This document shows, one piece after another, positions 7,391-49,354 of a stretch of 64,000 bases of DNA. The notes beneath the pieces are model-generated. The model was not told the origin of the DNA and did not search any database. It saw nothing but the letters and a program-made list of their open reading frames with translations. Both the position numbers and the translations under genes were made by a program. Each line of letters starts with the position of its first letter. The stretch's first letter is position 1. The DNA is taken from assembly GCA_934153945.1 (NCBI GenBank), contig CAKPFM010000001.1:72128-136127 (forward strand), read 5' to 3'. The stretch comes from an uncultured Bacilli bacterium. Lineage in GTDB: Bacteria > Bacillota_I > Bacilli_A > RF39 > UBA660.

Positions 7391-10300
7391 TGAATATTAA
7401 TAACGTTGAAGGGTTAAGAATAGCAATTGCCTCTCCTGAAATAATCAGAGAATGGTCTAATGGAGAAGTAAAAAAAGCAGAAACAATAAACTATCGTACT
7501 TTAAAACCTGAAAGAGATGGTTTGTTCTGTGAAAAAATATTTGGACCAACAAAAGACTGGGAATGTTCTTGTGGTAAATATAAAAGATTAAGATATAAAA
7601 ATATCGTTTGTGATAGATGTGGAGTAGAAGTTACATCTTCAAAAGTTCGTCGTGAACGTATGGGACACATAGAGCTTGCTACTCCTGTATCTCACATTTG
7701 GTTTTTTAAAGGTATACCATCTCGTATGGGATTAGTACTTGATATGTCACCAAGAGATTTGGAAGAAGTATTATACTTTGTTTCATATGTAGTATTAGAT
7801 CCAGGAGCAGCTCCTTTAGAGAAAAAACAAATAATCAGTGATAAAGAATACCGTGCTTACTATGAAAAATACGGAAGTAGTTTCAGAGTTGGTATGGGTG
7901 CTGAAGCAATTAAAGAATTATTACAACAAGTTGATATTGAACAAGAAGTAGAAAATATCAAAAAGGAAATAGAAGAAATAAAAGATAGTGCAAGTCAAAA
8001 AAGAGTTCGTTTAATCAAGAGATTAGATGTACTAAATGCTTTCCTTGAATCAGGAAATAAACCTGAATGGATGATAATGGATGCTATTCCAGTAATTCCA
8101 CCAGAATTAAGACCAATGATTCAATTAGATGGTGGTAGATTTGCTACATCTGATTTAAATGATTTATATAGAAGAGTAATCAATCGTAACAATCGTTTAA
8201 AAAAATTAATGGAATTAGGCGCTCCTAGTATCATTATTCAAAATGAAAAACGTATGTTACAAGAAGCAGTAGATGCATTATTTGATAATGGTAGAAGAGG
8301 ACGTAACATTACTGGAGCAGGTAATAGACCACTTAAATCTTTATCAAGTATGTTAAAAGGTAAACAAGGTCGTTTCCGTCAAAACTTACTAGGTAAACGT
8401 GTTGACTATTCAGGTCGTTCAGTTATCGTAGTTGGACCATCACTTAAAATGTATGAATGTGGTATTCCAAAGGAAATGGCTTTAGAATTATTTAAACCTT
8501 ATGTAATAAATGGCTTAGTATCTAAAGATATAGCATCAAATATTAAAGCTGCTAAACGTATGATTGAAAATCAAGATCCAAGAGTTTGGGATATTGTAGA
8601 AGAAAAAATTAAAGAACATCCAGTTATGTTAAACCGTGCTCCAACACTTCATAGACTTGGTATTCAAGCATTTGAACCAAAATTAATTGATGGTAGAGCA
8701 ATTCGTCTACATCCGCTTGTTTGTGCAGCATTCAATGCCGACTTTGATGGGGACCAAATGGCTGTTCACGTTCCAATTAGTGAAGAAGCTCAAGCTGAAG
8801 CTAGAATTTTAATGTTAGGTGCTAATAACATCCTAAAACCTTCTGATGGTAACCCAATTGTTACTCCAGGACAAGATATGATTTTAGGTAACTATTACAT
8901 AACTATTGAAAAAGCTGATATGCCTGGTGAAGGCAGAGTATTTAAAAATCCAGATGAAGCATTAATGGCATTTGAAAGAAGAGAAATTTCTCAACATACA
9001 AGAATTGCTATTCCAGTAAGTGGATTTAAACATAAATTATTTACTGAAGAACAAATGGATAAATATTTAGTAACTACAGTAGGAAAATTAAAATTCAATG
9101 AAATTTTCCCAGATACTTTCCAATATATTAACGAAGGTACAAAAGAAAATATAGAAGGTATAACACCAGCAAAATATTTCTTAAGTAGAGGTACTAATAT
9201 AAAAGAAGCAATTAAAGAGATGGAATTAGTAAAACCTTTTGGTAAAAAAGTTTTAACTAAATTAATTGCTCAAATATACAAAAGATATCAAACAACTGAA
9301 ACATCAATTATGCTTGATAAAATGAAAGATTTAGGATTTAAAGAATCTACATTATCAGGTATATCAATTGGTATTGGTGATATTATTCCATCAAAAACTA
9401 AAAAACAAGTTTTAGAAAATGCTAACGATAGAGTAGCACAAATAAATAAACAATTTAAACGTGGTTTAATTACTGATAAAGAAAGATATGAAAAAGTAGT
9501 TGCTACATGGAATAGTGCTAAAAATGAAATAGCAGATGAATTATCACAAATTATTGCTGATAATAAAGATAATCCTATATCAATAATGATTGATTCAGGT
9601 GCCCGTGGTAATATGAGTAACTACAACCAAATGGCTGGTATGCGTGGACTTATGGCTAAACCAAATGGTGAATCAGTAGAAATTCCAATCACTTCTTCAT
9701 TTATTGAAGGTGCAAGAGTTTCCGAGTTCTTCTTAGCAACTCACGGTATCAGAAAAGGTTTCGTTGATACAGCTCTTAAAACAGCAGATGCTGGTTACTT
9801 AACAAGAAGACTTATCGATGTATCACATGATATAATTATCAAAGAAGATGATTGTGGTACTGATGATGGTGTAGTAGTAGAAGCATTCTTAAATACAGAT
9901 GGTACTGTTATTGAAGGATTAAGAGATCGTATTGTTGGTAGATATACTAATAAGAAAGTTATTAATCCAGAAACAAAAGAAGTAATTGCTGATAGAAATA
10001 CTTACATTACTGAAAATTTAGCAGATAAAATTATTGATGCTGGAATTACAAAAGTTTCAATTCGTACAGTATTAACTTGTAAATCAAAAGGTTCAGTATG
10101 TAGACATTGTTATGGACGTAACTTAGCTACTGGACAAATTGTTGAAATAGGAGAAGCAGTTGGTACTATGGCAGCACAATCAATTGGTGAACCAGGAACA
10201 CAATTAACAATGCGTACTATCAACTCAGGTGGTGTAGCCGGAGACGATATTACTCAAGGTCTTCCTCGTGTTCAAGAATTATTTGAAGCACGTAATCCAA

Positions 10301-29961: not shown

Positions 29962-30038
29962 GTCCTCGTAGCTCATCGGGATAGAGCAAAAGTTTCCTAA
30001 ACTTTAGGTGGTAGGTTCGAGTCCTATCGGGGACGCCA
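29962..30038 (+). tRNA. tRNA-Arg, anticodon CCT
   Basis: Manual cloverleaf fold: acceptor GTCCTCG/CGGGGAC, D arm GCTC..GAGC, anticodon arm AAAGT-TTCCTAA-ACTTT, T arm GTAGG-TTCGAGT-CCTAT, then discriminator G and encoded CCA. Confidence 0.85.
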
Positions 30039-31694: not shown

Positions 31695-31787
31695 TTAATT
31701 AAAAAATGGTGTCAATTTGAATAATAGAAGTATAAGTAGAATGATGATAATGATTAAAACAAAGATTAAAAAATCTTTCTTAGTCAT
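31695..31787 (-). CDS. small hydrophobic peptide (30 aa, MTKKDFLIFVLIIIIILLILLLFKLTPFFN), candidate type I toxin-like membrane peptide
   Basis: ATG 7 nt after a GGAGG SD that lies in a perfect CCUCC-GAAA-GGAGG hairpin on the mRNA strand. Paralog of the peptide at 39544..39627. Not in the supplied ORF track (below the size cutoff). Confidence 0.55.
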   Translation of the reverse strand: MTKKDFLIFVLIIIIILLILLLFKLTPFFN

Positions 31788-31867
31788 TTCACCACCTCCT
31801 TTCGGAGGTAAGCACTCAACGGTTAAAGTATTACTAAATAAATTATATTAAAACATATATTATAAAA

Positions 31868-38787: not shown

Positions 38788-39384
38788 ATGGTAACATATG
38801 TAACAGGAAATTATGGTAAATATATATCAGTAAAAGAAAAATTTGAAAAATATAATATAGATATAAATTATTATAAATGTGATATTGATGAATTAAATAT
38901 TAATGATATAGAAAAAATAAGCAAAGATAAAGCTAGACAAGCTTATTTAAAATTAAATTCACCAGTATTTGTAGTAGATTCAGGATTTTATATTAGAAGT
39001 TATCCAAATAATCCAAATTATCCTGGAGCATTTGTTAAAAGATCTGGGGTAGCTAAAAATGTAGAAGAGTTATTAAATATTATGAGAGATGTTAAAGATA
39101 GATATTGTTTTTTCCTAGATTGTTTGACTTACTATGATGGAGAAAATTATAAAACTTTTTATGGTAAAAGTGAAGGATTTTTGTCATATGAAGTAAAGGG
39201 TAATGATTTAGTACAAGCCAAATCAAATTTATGGAAAGTATTTATTCCTAAAAATTATGATAAAACTTTAGCTGAAATGACTGAAGATGAAAGAAAAAAT
39301 AGGGGAGAAATAGGCGCTACTGAAAAGTTTATTAATTGGTATAAAGAAAATTTAAATGCTAAAAATTTAGTATTAAAAAAATAA
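38788..39384 (+). CDS. HAM1/RdgB-family (ITPase-fold) non-canonical NTP pyrophosphatase-like protein, divergent
   Basis: N-terminal YVTGNYGKYISVKEKFEKY (TGNxGK..E), VVDSGF, RYCFFLDCLTYYDGE and LAEMTEDERKNRGEIG follow the HAM1 family order. Starts 3 nt after the SIS gene stop. Confidence 0.5.
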   Translation: MVTYVTGNYGKYISVKEKFEKYNIDINYYKCDIDELNINDIEKISKDKARQAYLKLNSPVFVVDSGFYIRSYPNNPNYPGAFVKRSGVAKNVEELLNIMRDVKDRYCFFLDCLTYYDGENYKTFYGKSEGFLSYEVKGNDLVQAKSNLWKVFIPKNYDKTLAEMTEDERKNRGEIGATEKFINWYKENLNAKNLVLKK

Positions 39385-39398
39385 AAATATATGAAATA

Positions 39399-39540
39399 TT
39401 GAAAAAAATTTAAATATATGTTAATATGTATTTAGCAAGCAGTCTTGCATAAAATAAAAAAGGGAACATTCAATTGTGCATGTTGAGTGATTGCCTATAT
39501 AGGTTTCACCTAAATCATTGCTGAGTTAGGTGATTTTTCA
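39399..39540 (+). ncRNA. candidate small RNA 'A': consensus sigma-A promoter plus a ~105-nt transcript ending in a terminator that abuts the 3' end of peptide 2
   Basis: TTGAAA-N17-TAATAT (39399..39427). Terminator hairpin CACCTAA..TTAGGTG plus ATTTTT (39507..39538). No ORF. The 5' ~110 bp is duplicated at 39777..39890 (start of locus B). Confidence 0.45.
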
Positions 39541-39543
39541 TAT

Positions 39544-39627
39544 TTAGATTAAAACTATAAATAGTAATAATACTAATAGGAAGATAAGAATTACTAAAGC
39601 AAAGATTAAAAAATCTTTCTTGTTCAT
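39544..39627 (-). CDS. small hydrophobic peptide (27 aa, MNKKDFLIFALVILIFLLVLLLFIVLI), paralog of 31695..31787 and candidate type I toxin-like peptide
   Basis: GGGAGG SD 8 nt upstream of ATG. A CUUCU-AAAA-AGAAG hairpin abuts the SD. The 5' coding region is conserved with peptide 1 at the nucleotide level. Not in the ORF track. Confidence 0.55.
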   Translation of the reverse strand: MNKKDFLIFALVILIFLLVLLLFIVLI

Positions 39628-39795
39628 AATATCGCCTCCCTTCTTTTTAGAAGTTTGGCAAATCACCCAACTATTAAATGTCCCTATAAATAATATATCA
39701 AACATATATTCGTATATCAAGTAGTTTTATTAAATTTATAAAATTTAGTTTTAATAAAGTAATAATATTGTAAAATGATAAAAATATATGAAATA

Positions 39796-39938
39796 TTGAA
39801 AAAATTTTAAATATATGTTAATATGTATTTAGCAAGTAATTTTGCATAAAATAAAAAAGAGGAACATTCAATGTTGCAAGTGAATGTTGCCTCACAAAAG
39901 TGTGTGACACTCTACAAATGCAGGGTGTCTATTTTTTT
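39796..39938 (+). ncRNA. candidate small RNA 'B', second copy of the promoter plus 5' segment of sRNA A with its own terminator
   Basis: TTGAAA-N17-TAATAT (39796..39824). Transcript 5' end is ~85% identical to sRNA A. Terminator GACAC..GTGTC plus TATTTTTTT (39906..39938). Its 3' end is convergent with the gene at 39989..40933. Confidence 0.4.
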
Positions 39939-39988
39939 GTTAATACCATTATTGTTTAGCATGAAATATATAGCACATTTTCATTTTA

Positions 39989-40933
39989 TTAAAATTTACT
40001 TTTTCTATAAACTAATATTGAATCATTTATTGTACTATCTTTAAATTTTATTCCATCAACACCTATGAATGAAAGCAATTGTGGATTATATTCTTGCAAT
40101 ATTTCAAAAGTTTTTTCTAGATTATATATTGGTTTCCAATCTGGGTGGTATGGAGTGTTTCTATCAGTTTTGTATAAATAACTAATAAGAAGTAACCCAT
40201 TATTATTTAAATTTTTTGATATATTATCTATCATTATTTTTAAAAAATGTCTCGAAATATATGTTCCAATATTTGATAACCATATTGAATCAAATTGTTT
40301 ATTCATTTTTACTTTAAATACATCGTCAGTAATAAATTCTAATTTTGTTTTTTTTATTTTTGCTTTTGTTTCGTCATATAATATATCGCTTTGCAAATAA
40401 GGATTGCATCCTACTATCACATCTATTTTATTTTCGTCAGAATAAAATAATTCTTCTCGTATATTCAATCCCTTAAAGTTTGAAAATAATTCATCCCAAA
40501 ATAAATAAGATTCATAATCTAATAATCTTAAAGTAGATATGATTCTTTTATAAATGTCATTATTAAAAACAAATTTATTATTTCTAAATGTTTTATATTT
40601 ATAACTTAAAAATTCTAAAAATTCATTTTTACTTAATTCAAGTAAACAACTTATTTTTAAATAAATATAAAATTTTGCATATGGACAAATATCTAAACAA
40701 GTTACATTTTGACAATCAAATAAACTTGCATTTATAATTTGGTCACCAGATGCTCCAACAGTTAATAATGTTCCATTAGATAAATTAAAATTGTTTATAT
40801 AACCTGCAATATTTTCTGTCGTAAAAGGATAGAGCAATTGAAACTCTTTAGCAATATCTTCTACAAACATCCCATTACATTTATTGATTGCATTCATCAA
40901 AAGTATTTCAAAATTTGAATCTTTTTTATACAT
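39989..40933 (-). CDS. hypothetical protein, 314 aa, possibly a SAM-binding DUF3419/BtaA-like fold
   Basis: Long minus-strand ORF. Segment LLTVGASGDQIINASLFDCQNVTCLDICP loosely resembles a methyltransferase-like motif I. Low-confidence family call. Confidence 0.5.
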   Translation of the reverse strand: MYKKDSNFEILLMNAINKCNGMFVEDIAKEFQLLYPFTTENIAGYINNFNLSNGTLLTVGASGDQIINASLFDCQNVTCLDICPYAKFYIYLKISCLLELSKNEFLEFLSYKYKTFRNNKFVFNNDIYKRIISTLRLLDYESYLFWDELFSNFKGLNIREELFYSDENKIDVIVGCNPYLQSDILYDETKAKIKKTKLEFITDDVFKVKMNKQFDSIWLSNIGTYISRHFLKIMIDNISKNLNNNGLLLISYLYKTDRNTPYHPDWKPIYNLEKTFEILQEYNPQLLSFIGVDGIKFKDSTINDSILVYRKSKF

Positions 40934-47036: not shown

Positions 47037-47110
47037 GCAGATGTAGTTTAATGGTAGAACCTCAGCCTTCCAAGCTGACTGCGTGAGTTCGATTCTCATC
47101 ATCTGCTCCA
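47037..47110 (+). tRNA. tRNA-Gly, anticodon TCC
   Basis: Manual fold: acceptor GCAGATG/CATCTGC, D arm GTTT..GAAC, anticodon arm TCAGC-CTTCCAA-GCTGA, T arm GTGAG-TTCGATT-CTCAT, then discriminator T and CCA. Confidence 0.85.
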
Positions 47111-47119
47111 TATGAAATT

Positions 47120-47147
47120 AACAGACATTATAGTGTCTGTTTTTTTG
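47120..47147 (+). terminator. terminator after tRNA-Gly
   Basis: ACAGACAT..GTGTCTGT followed by a 7-T run. Confidence 0.65.
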
Positions 47148-47221
47148 TATTTATTCTACGCAGTCAGCTTGGAAAATACCAAATAAAAAATATTAAAATA
47201 TTTGATATTTTTACCATTAAA

Positions 47222-47533
47222 CTACATCTTTTTATTAATTACTTTATTGTTCATATATTCAATTATATCGTCAAAAATGCTATACCATTTTATTTGAACA
47301 CAAAATCTTTTTTTATCATATTTAGGATTATAATTTAGATTTCTAGTCATAGGTTGACAATATAAATTAGCAAAATGAACTCCAGTTGAATAAATATTTC
47401 TTTTTGAAAATATTATCTTGTCAATTTCATATCTTGTAATAAACAAAAAGTCATCTACAGTACCATAGATGATAGCATCTATACATTCATTAGAATTTTT
47501 TTCATATAGCGCATATATAAAATCTTTAAACAA
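47222..47533 (-). pseudogene. internally deleted copy (103 aa) of the 253-aa gene at 48593..49354
   Basis: N-terminus MFKDFIYALYEKNSNECIDAIIYG fuses residues ~28-40 (..LFKDFIYALYGKN..) to residues ~178-190 (..QGKNSNECIDAIIYG..) of the full paralog. The rest is ~90% identical. It has a start and a stop, so it might still be expressed. Confidence 0.55.
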
Positions 47534-47670
47534 GGGTTTAATGATCTAATTTTACAGACATTAAATAACAGGAAAATTTATAAAACTTGTTATAAAACTG
47601 ATACATGAGTAAATATGCTTTATTGCTAAAAATGGTTAAATTATGATAAAATATATTTAGGTGGTTACTT

Positions 47671-48460: not shown

Positions 48461-48552
48461 AAGCTTTCCTATCAAATGGTCCATATAAAATTAACAGACT
48501 TTATATAGTCTGTTTTTTGTATTTATTCTACGCAGTCAGCTTGGAAAGTATA
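48461..48552 (+). repeat. direct repeat of the tRNA-Gly 3' end and its downstream terminator region (att-like junction)
   Basis: TCCTATCAAATGGTCCATAT matches the tRNA 3' end TCTCATCATCTGCTCCATAT at 15 of 20 positions. It is followed by a near-identical copy of 47111..47175 and then a copy of the 47190..47350 region. Confidence 0.55.
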
Positions 48553-48592
48553 AAATATCAATACAGAAATATTAAATATTTTTACCATTAAA

Positions 48593-49354
48593 CTACATCT
48601 TTTTATTAATTACTTTATTGTTCATATATTCAATTATATCGTCAAAAATGCTATACCATTTTATTTGAACACAAAATCTTTTTTTATCATATTTAGGATT
48701 ATAATTTAGATTTCTAGTCATAGGTTGACAATATAAATTAGCAAAATGTATTCCTGTTGAATAAATATCTTTTTTAGAAATTATTATCTCTTCAATTTCT
48801 TCTTTAGTAATAAACAAAAAGTCATCTACAGTACCATATATAATAGCGTCTATACATTCATTTGAATTTTTACCTTGTAAAATAAATCTATTGATTGCTC
48901 TTTTTATGATATATTCATTATTTAAAGCAATATTTATTTTATCAATTTTATCTTGATTATTAATTTTATATTCATATCCTGATATTCTATTTGCGCCAGT
49001 TCCATTAGTTGTACCATCAGCATAGTGATATTTTAAATATTCAATTATATTTTCTTTTGAAATACCAGAATCTATTAAAAAATGAATAAAACTAGATATT
49101 CCTTCAACATGAACTGAATTATTTATACCTTTTTTAATACTTATTTTTTTGATACAATCATTTATATTTATAATTAAATCATATTTTTTCTTATCATAAT
49201 CAACTTTACATTTTATTCTAGAATTTTCATTTAAATTTTTTCCATATAGAGCATATATAAAATCTTTAAATAAAGGGGTTAATGATTTAATTTTACAACC
49301 ATTTAAATAACAAGAAAATTTATGTTCATTTTCAAAACCTGTTACTTCATTCAT
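48593..49354 (-). CDS. hypothetical protein, 253 aa, full-length member of the duplicated family
   Basis: Long ORF. Its C-terminal 90 aa are nearly identical to 47222..47533. No confident family; no Cys/His nuclease motifs. Confidence 0.55.
   Translation of the reverse strand: MNEVTGFENEHKFSCYLNGCKIKSLTPLFKDFIYALYGKNLNENSRIKCKVDYDKKKYDLIININDCIKKISIKKGINNSVHVEGISSFIHFLIDSGISKENIIEYLKYHYADGTTNGTGANRISGYEYKINNQDKIDKINIALNNEYIIKRAINRFILQGKNSNECIDAIIYGTVDDFLFITKEEIEEIIISKKDIYSTGIHFANLYCQPMTRNLNYNPKYDKKRFCVQIKWYSIFDDIIEYMNNKVINKKM

Follow-up and report, generated by a model that had tools for sequence, protein, structure and literature searches.

A 565-bp region (39381–39945) of the 64,000-nt stretch of uncultured Bacilli DNA analyzed here (contig CAKPFM010000001.1; the window) very probably holds two adjacent members of a single type I toxin–antitoxin family of low-G+C uncultured gut Bacilli: locus A, which is intact, and locus B, an orphan antitoxin. 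Sequence anatomy, conservation, co-occurrence with peptide genes, and predicted folds were established directly; from them we infer transcription, transcript ends, toxicity, and the mode of repression at both loci. Each locus carries a copy of one module: a −35/extended −10 promoter, then a 5′ hairpin of 5 bp, an A-rich linker, and a longer second hairpin (HP2). The 3′ parts that follow are unrelated, and each has a terminator. Global alignment of 39381–39495 with 39777–39890 gave 104 identical columns of 117 (88.9%), so that the ~85% estimated in an earlier reading made without database searches (the sequence-only reading) was slightly low. The first 89 nt (39374–39462 and 39771–39859) align without gaps at 93% identity. 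Outside the module, identity breaks off sharply, to 61% in the upstream flanks and 52.9% between the downstream parts, which are unrelated and, as had been noticed, possess terminators of their own (stem 39507–39532 in A and 39906–39929 in B, each with a U run). The window contains exactly two occurrences of a 20-nt core, GTTAATATGTATTTAGCAAG, where shuffled sequences lead one to expect 0.06, and no module copy beyond A and B was detected within the 64 kb. The window is very AT-rich, with ~22% G+C around the locus.

The promoter boxes reported by the sequence-only reading are found in both copies in identical form, TTGAAA, a 17-nt spacer, and TAATAT with TG in front (39399–39427 and 39796–39824). 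At locus A, the −35 box lies at 39399–39404 and the TG-n-TAATAT extended −10 element at 39419–39427 of the plus strand, giving a predicted start at ~39434. The predicted product, small RNA (sRNA) A, is an A-type antitoxin RNA of ~105 nt (39434–39540, plus strand), recognized by its fold and by alignment with further A-type copies. It consists of hairpin 1 (39435–39448), the linker AUAAAAUAAAAAAG (39449–39461), HP2 (39461–39496), and the terminator stem (39507–39532) with a U run at 39534–39538, and its fold has a predicted energy of −29.2 kcal/mol (z = −3.0). sRNA A does end against the small peptide gene to which it had been assigned, a convergent minus-strand open reading frame (ORF) at 39544–39627 encoding the 27-aa peptide MNKKDFLIFALVILIFLLVLLLFIVLI and a stop codon, which we regard as a putative toxin gene (toxin-A). 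A GGGAGG ribosome-binding site is located at 39635–39640, 7 nt upstream of the ORF, and a minus-strand promoter at 39692–39720 (TTGATA, 17-nt spacer, TG-n-TATATT) matches the consensus at 10 of 12 positions and carries the TG.

The predicted toxin-A mRNA and sRNA A are extensively complementary. sRNA A would pair with the last ~95 nt of the ~240-nt mRNA in a duplex of −159 kcal/mol, and its 3′ end stops 4–5 nt short of the toxin-A stop codon; an mRNA that reached the U tract at ~39446 would include the complement of the entire sRNA. The 3′ end of the mRNA (39446–39497, minus strand), exactly complementary to the linker and HP2 of sRNA A, provides the 3′ arm of a long-distance interaction and, after it, the U tract CUUUUUUAUUUUAU. 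The 5′ arm is the mRNA 5′ end (39657–39686, minus strand; AUAGGGACAUUUAAUAGUUGGGUGAUUUGCC), and in the predicted fold of the 247-nt mRNA the first ~30 nt pair with the stretch preceding the U tract (z = −5.5). Because that 3′ stretch is the complement of HP2, the mRNA 5′ end closely matches a loop-less HP2 in sequence. The minus strand of the A-type HP2 region forms no stable hairpin by itself (−2.8 kcal/mol, z = +1.2), since what is a conserved U-G pair in the sRNA is an A-C mismatch there; two such pairs are kept in 26–28 of 28 A-type copies. From this strand asymmetry it follows that HP2 forms in the sRNA, whereas the mRNA 3′ arm remains available to the long-distance helix. The B-type sequence folds on either strand (−13 kcal/mol for the minus strand).

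Using a 26-nt core of the module, GCATAAAATAAAAAA-N(1–3)-GGAACATTCAA, we scanned GTDB species representatives and metagenome contigs and identified 55 stretches from GTDB species representatives, almost all of them under the titles uncultured Bacilli, Tenericutes, or Mycoplasma sp. (e.g., Mycoplasma sp. CAG:611), and a further 19 metagenome contigs. The exact pattern makes conservation at those positions a matter of construction, and clade assignment rests on record titles and on G+C content, which is 20–34% in the module-bearing GTDB contigs. A search with nhmmer and a hidden Markov model of the module added slightly diverged copies beside many of the pattern matches, and clusters of copies are common. 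The pattern matched nothing in a phage collection, a plasmid collection, or viral contigs, so there is no sign of a mobile-element origin. The copies fall into at least four classes of 3′ end: the A type, with the terminator CACCUAA...UUAGGUG (29 copies); the B type, with GACACUC...GAGUGUC followed by UAUUUUUUUAUUGCUAAC (26 copies); and further 3′ ends found in a few copies. A-type RNAs are convergent to genes for 27-aa peptides beginning MNKKDFLI or MSKKDFLI in ~20 other species, and B-type RNAs to genes for the 30-aa peptide MKTKTFIIKVLKLIAIILLLSTLLVLAIKK and variants that start with MKTKTFIIKVLK in ~18 species; peptide genes of both types carry GGAGG-type ribosome-binding sites. The sequence-only reading had proposed a modular antisense-RNA family that combines a single promoter/5′ module with various target-overlapping 3′ modules, and the 55 stretches with their several 3′-end classes agree with that proposal. 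Six contigs (L012, L015, L021, L026, L032, and L034) with 24–34% G+C and the same module are titled “uncultured Muribaculaceae” or “Clostridium sp.”; these labels of metagenome-assembled genomes (MAGs) are likely wrong. The species of the window has also been recovered from human-gut assemblies with a virtually identical intergenic region, and strain L004 (92% protein identity) retains both copies.

Identities compared within and between genomes bear out the modularity, the promoter/5′ module tracking the genome and the 3′ module the subtype. Promoter regions are ~96% identical within a genome even across subtypes (98% between A and B of the window and 90–98% between the B and C types of L025) and 65% identical between genomes within the same subtype. 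The 3′ modules are 54–61% identical across subtypes within a genome and 71% identical across genomes within a subtype. The module has therefore been exchanged or homogenized among neighboring copies, with the 3′ part tied to the toxin; gene conversion or cassette exchange may have been the route. The clearest example of a cassette-like arrangement is L025 (CAKPEJ010000003.1, 3866–5035), in which four tandem units at ~380-nt spacing have promoters 90–100% identical and follow one another as a B type with a 30-aa toxin, two C types, both with a 27-aa toxin-A-like peptide, and an orphan B type. The description of the window's two loci as a tandem duplication thus holds for the shared, near-identical promoter/5′ module and does not extend to the whole units, A and B being distinct and separately conserved subtypes. 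Since each of the two types is conserved with its own peptide, B is not a decayed copy of A.

A −35 box with an extended −10 box, ending 19–22 nt ahead of the linker, was present in 54 of 61 unique upstream regions, against 1.1% in shuffled sequences, and it persists in surroundings that have diverged to 65% identity from one genome to another. Comparison of the window with L004 shows 91–98% identity at third codon positions of five neighboring genes, 146 of 146 identical positions in the toxin-A ORF with its 5′ untranslated region (UTR), and 97.4% identity in sRNA A, where differences are confined to the hairpin 1 loop and two promoter-region positions, a pattern suggestive of purifying selection on both the toxin-A ORF/5′ UTR and sRNA A. 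Long-distance pairing of 21–30 bp between the first 35 and the last 62 nt appears in the minimum-energy fold of all 40 mRNAs from intact loci. Because MAFFT set the subtypes out of register, arm co-variation was evaluated by permuting cognate and non-cognate duplex energies instead of by column-wise covariation: duplexes of cognate 5′ and 3′ arms are the more stable (−31.4 vs. −27.7 kcal/mol for non-cognate arms), and none of 10,000 permutations did as well. Matching changes in the two arms include UCUACC/GGUAGA, UCUGCC/GGCAGA, GCUACC/GGUAAC, and UCAUCCUC/GAGGUGA. In the predicted ensembles, the ribosome-binding site has a mean unpaired probability of only 0.10–0.20 and so is paired for the most part. 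For the sRNAs, consensus structures were computed with RNAalifold, sRNA A being aligned with 27 further A-type copies; the A-type and B-type alignments both gave back the hairpins, with hardly any compensatory changes apart from those at the closing pair of the A terminator (13 double changes).

Locus B is best read as an orphan antitoxin whose own toxin gene has been deleted to ~7 codons. Its promoter (39796–39824, plus strand) predicts a start at ~39831 and a B-type RNA, sRNA B (39831–39938, plus strand), made up of hairpin 1 (39832–39845), a linker (39846–39858), HP2 (39859–39893), a short hairpin CACAAAAGUGUG (39893–39904), and the terminator (39906–39929) with its U run. sRNA B is identified by this fold (−29.3 kcal/mol, z = −2.9), the terminator, and a 3′ end that is conserved in ~24 copies of other species. 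At intact B loci, the terminator U run overlaps the final codons (..VLAIKK*) of the peptide gene; the remainder of the ORF lies beyond the terminator, followed by its ribosome-binding site, a 5′ UTR in which HP2 is copied once more, and a promoter. Comparison with such loci (L022, L029, L048, L014, and L025) shows that in the window the start codon, ribosome-binding site, 5′ UTR, and promoter of the B toxin are deleted. What is left is a remnant of the last ~7 codons (..MVLTKK*; 39929–39949, minus strand) that matches the ..LLVLAIKK* end of intact 30-aa B toxins; in the window, L004, and L033, homology to intact loci ends after these codons, and the 3′ flank of a 314-aa gene comes next. No B-type peptide ORF was found elsewhere in the window. 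The former terminator of the B toxin mRNA persists as a minus-strand hairpin with a U tract (39843–39895; −13 kcal/mol). Deleted or truncated toxin copies are frequent in other genomes. In L015 (~7650–7760), the inverted toxin 5′-UTR motif comes immediately after HP2 of the sRNA, the ORF and the 3′ part of the sRNA having been deleted, and in L053 (~154–500) most of the B toxin ORF is present but its start codon and ribosome-binding site are gone.

The orphan has diverged within the species: sRNA B is 87.8% identical to the L004 copy, which is below the third codon positions of the neighboring genes. In the L004 copy the −10 box is weakened from TAATAT to TAATGT, hairpin 1 has lost a pair, and a TT-to-CC change in the HP2 stem retains pairing on the minus strand only. 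That copy is also a mosaic, with a short middle hairpin like that of L029 and a terminator like that of L022, which points to recombination among copies. Through the shared module, sRNA B would form a duplex of −64 kcal/mol with the toxin-A mRNA (−34 ± 4 kcal/mol for shuffled sequences), making cross-protection against toxin-A conceivable.

The sequence-only reading had suggested that sRNA B may regulate the 314-aa gene. The two are indeed convergent, the RNA ending ~50 nt from the stop codon of this DUF3419-like gene (39989–40933, minus strand; Pfam DUF3419 E = 1.4e-5, below the family cut-off). As an original role, however, such regulation lacks support, given the B-type RNAs of other species, which are convergent to the 30-aa peptide gene rather than to DUF3419-like genes, and the 314-aa homologs (78–84% protein identity) that occur in unrelated contexts with no module within 10 kb. 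When orthologous loci were traced via the 314-aa protein, the arrangement was found to be kept only in the same species (L001–L005). The gene is thus a neighbor of sRNA B and not its ancestral partner. It occupies a different neighborhood in each related species examined (L006, L008, and L010), which suggests that the gene moves or that the region is often rearranged; in L004, a fragment of an ISL3 transposase is also found, 2 kb upstream of the syntenic block.

A later co-option of sRNA B as an antisense regulator of the 314-aa gene is another matter, and we consider it unlikely. Beyond the 314-aa stop codon, the minus-strand hairpin at 39843–39895, the HP2 complement with its U tract (−13 kcal/mol), is the first strong terminator to be met, and the 314-aa mRNA probably borrows this old B toxin terminator. 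An mRNA ending there would have a 3′ UTR of ~130 nt fully complementary to sRNA B, so that pairing could alter its stability, and the 3′ overlap that the sequence-only reading had asked to have checked is then predicted as a perfect duplex of −167 kcal/mol. The arrangement is retained in strains L004 and L033, and the TT-to-CC change in L004 that spares pairing on the minus strand alone also counts in its favor. Against co-option, the conserved partner of the B-type RNA elsewhere is the 30-aa peptide gene, 314-aa homologs in related species have no module nearby, and sRNA B diverges faster than neighboring third codon positions; the weakened −10 box and lost hairpin 1 pair of L004 look like relaxed constraint on the sRNA rather than a new selected function.

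Assignment of the family to the type I class rests on its architecture and is one we make with considerable confidence. The 27-aa toxin-A product is encoded by a short ORF (<60 aa), is hydrophobic and of membrane type, and has its own ribosome-binding site; an antisense RNA complementary to the toxin mRNA is apparent in the sequence from the conserved promoter, the terminator, and convergence; and the predictions contain both a sequestered ribosome-binding site and a 5′–3′ long-distance interaction. The peptides might instead be ordinary small membrane proteins tuned by a cis-antisense RNA, a view favored by their lack of a match to any toxin family and by the name “hypothetical protein” borne by the single exact match in the protein collection. 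We regard this as improbable. Multi-copy arrays, orphan antitoxins, and truncated peptide genes are typical of type I toxin–antitoxin loci, and the family has tandem arrays (the four units of L025) as well as frequent orphan antitoxins and truncated peptide genes. These features, together with sequestered ribosome-binding sites and an mRNA locked 5′ to 3′, all fit the type I pattern (T1TAdb paper, PMC8594479).

Several observations weigh against the toxin–antitoxin assignment or against details of it. Toxicity and transcription are both deduced rather than observed. A conventional terminator hairpin is lacking from the strand of the A-type mRNA, which makes the 3′ end of this mRNA uncertain. 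Rfam gave no relevant match, either for the whole window at the gathering threshold or for 39300–40000 at E values up to 10, and Pfam and NCBIfam searches with six family peptides at E up to 10 returned chance matches only and no type I toxin family. Base-pair covariation in the sRNA hairpins is sparse, the sequences being nearly invariant, and the 5′ arm of HP2 was fixed by the search pattern. Within one subtype, cognate and non-cognate arms pair equally well (p = 0.22–0.26), so the effect in the arm test arises between subtypes. Modeled sRNA binding leaves accessibility of the ribosome-binding site unchanged in A-type mRNAs; in B types it lowers the unpaired probability from 0.099 to 0.043, a modest trend, and allosteric closing of the ribosome-binding site on sRNA binding is not claimed.

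That the module is only a bidirectional terminator or intergenic repeat from which no sRNA is made appears highly improbable. Its minus strand does provide a U tract and, in B types, also a good terminator hairpin, but 54 of 61 copies have retained the promoter at a constant distance despite 65% surrounding identity, each copy has its own plus-strand terminator behind it, and the A-type HP2 is stable on the plus strand only, by virtue of its conserved G-U pairs. The probability that the plus-strand RNAs are short mRNAs, with the purine-rich AAGGGAAC/AGAGGAAC as a ribosome-binding site 6–8 nt upstream of a TTG at 39476 (16 aa) in A and an ATG at 39871 in B, is negligible, given that the two putative peptides are unrelated, the B ORF crosses its own terminator into the 314-aa gene, the HP2 loop varies by 1–2-nt indels, and complementarity to the toxin mRNA 3′ arm and U tract accounts for the purine-rich motif; with neither a reading frame nor a start codon conserved in the family, coding sRNAs were rejected.

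For locus A we propose the following model. A minus-strand mRNA of ~240 nt would encode the 27-residue hydrophobic peptide, and the ~105-nt sRNA would be transcribed toward the mRNA gene. The unpaired, A-rich linker of the sRNA could nucleate on the unpaired, U-rich tail of the mRNA; pairing would then spread through HP2, displace the mRNA 5′ end, and proceed to the terminator region. The resulting duplex of ~95 bp would be a substrate for a double-strand RNase, probably RNase III, leading to mRNA decay. With the ribosome-binding site kept closed, the mRNA degraded, or both, the peptide would not be made. We commit to decay as the presumed main effect in this model, with translational control possible in addition. 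An antitoxin that duplicates the 5′ end sequence of the toxin mRNA is an unusual arrangement. It invites the doubtful but possible idea, offered tentatively, that HP2 mimics the mRNA 5′ end and that the two compete for the 3′ arm. Because the A-type 3′ arm is unable to fold on itself (−2.8 kcal/mol, with the G-U asymmetry), the end-to-end helix abutting the U tract could be both the only terminator of the mRNA and its lock, and the module could be a homogenized, cross-neutralizing cassette. If so, any module copy, including orphan B, could partly neutralize its neighbors, and such cross-protection would explain how orphan antitoxins persist in these small genomes.

Elsewhere in the window, a third small hydrophobic ORF, peptide 1 (MTKKDFLIFVLIIIIILLILLLFKLTPFFN; 31695–31850, minus strand), shares 74% DNA identity with the 5′ part of the toxin-A gene. 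Its 5′ UTR forms a perfect hairpin that sequesters the ribosome-binding site (CCUCC-GAAA-GGAGG), and it carries a decayed copy of the 5′ arm (ACUUUAACCGUUGAGUGCUUACC), like a fourth subtype found in L043 and L030. No sRNA module was detected alongside, and its C terminus is atypical; peptide 1 is probably an orphan or decaying toxin gene. Predicted energies of trans pairing of sRNA A or sRNA B with the peptide-1 mRNA (31695–31787) fell within the range of shuffled sequences. Genes flanking the two loci are unremarkable and encode a WYL/HTH regulator, a 304-aa protein without a family match, a Ham1-type NTPase, the DUF3419-like 314-aa protein, and a PP-loop ATPase. Rfam matches at the gathering threshold in the window are a ribosomal protein L10 leader (1996–2113) and two tRNAs (29962–30035 and 47037–47107), all unrelated to the repeat. 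Immediately after the second tRNA, a ~450-bp segment is repeated ~1.37 kb downstream (47093–47536 and 48466–49276), with 300 nt at 93% identity and flanking pieces at 83–93%; G+C skew drops there, and the repeat could be a duplicated tRNA flank or the remnant of an integration site.

These loci add a type I family in an uncultured, small-genome, low-G+C clade of gut Bacilli, for which full-text literature searches returned nothing that links type I toxin–antitoxin systems or small RNAs to the clade. For annotation, the conserved intergenic blocks of ~100 nt in these MAGs can now be labeled, and there is no need to interpret orphans like locus B as regulators of adjoining genes. The family also amounts to a natural experiment in the modular evolution of regulatory RNA, its promoter and 5′ domain evolving in concert within each genome and its 3′ domains being inherited by subtype. 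Of 10 exact peptide sequences compared with a collection of 15 billion proteins, only the one named “hypothetical protein” was present.

Judged from its sequence, the family is a new one within a known class, with at least four subtypes, and it fails the sequence tests of each of the systems that it resembles. Enterococcus faecalis par (Fst, RNA I/RNA II), the Fst-like loci, and SprA1 likewise have convergent RNAs meeting at their 3′ ends and hydrophobic toxins of ~30 aa; par/Fst loci, too, have repeats common to the mRNA 5′ region and the antitoxin and occur as multi-copy chromosomal loci in Firmicutes. The two 5′ regions of par are rendered complementary to each other by direct repeats, and the RNAs interact outside their overlap (PMC8594479). 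Here, by contrast, the mRNA 5′ end and HP2 of the sRNA are alike, which makes them an inverted repeat at the DNA level, and either one is the complement of the mRNA 3′ arm. Neither the Pfam model of the Fst toxin nor the Rfam model of the Fst antitoxin matched at E up to 10, and the sole Enterococcus match in Rfam, EF0408_EF0409, scored 11.7 bits against a 440-bit threshold.

With hok/Sok and Helicobacter pylori aapA1/IsoA1, the family has in common a predicted 5′–3′ lock of the full-length toxin mRNA and a sequestered ribosome-binding site. In those systems, which belong to Gram-negative hosts, the antisense RNA pairs with the 5′ region of the 3′-processed mRNA. The concept of a long-distance 5′–3′ lock of the mRNA is described in PMC8594479. 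Unlike the hok/Sok and AapA/IsoA antitoxins, the sRNA here is encoded at the 3′ end and is complementary to the 3′ arm; this complementarity extends no farther than the stop codon or just past it into the ORF, and the sequences bear no relation to those of the two systems.

The genetic organization of the Gram-positive 3′-overlapping type I loci has been summarized (PMC8594479). Like bsrG/SR4, bsrE/SR5, and txpA/RatA of Bacillus subtilis and the type I systems of Clostridioides difficile, locus A pairs a gene for a small hydrophobic peptide with a convergent cis-antisense RNA that overlaps the 3′ end of its mRNA. As in those systems, the expected outcome is decay of the RNA duplex, to which SR4 adds a structural effect on the ribosome-binding site. 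Only the 3′-overlap organization is common to our family and to bsrG/SR4 and txpA/RatA, there being no Rfam, Pfam, or NCBIfam match to them. The peptides of the present family, at 27–30 aa, are shorter than those of that group, and the A-type sRNA barely overlaps the ORF. Its target is the 3′ arm of a 5′–3′ helix, and a single 5′ module serves several toxin subtypes.

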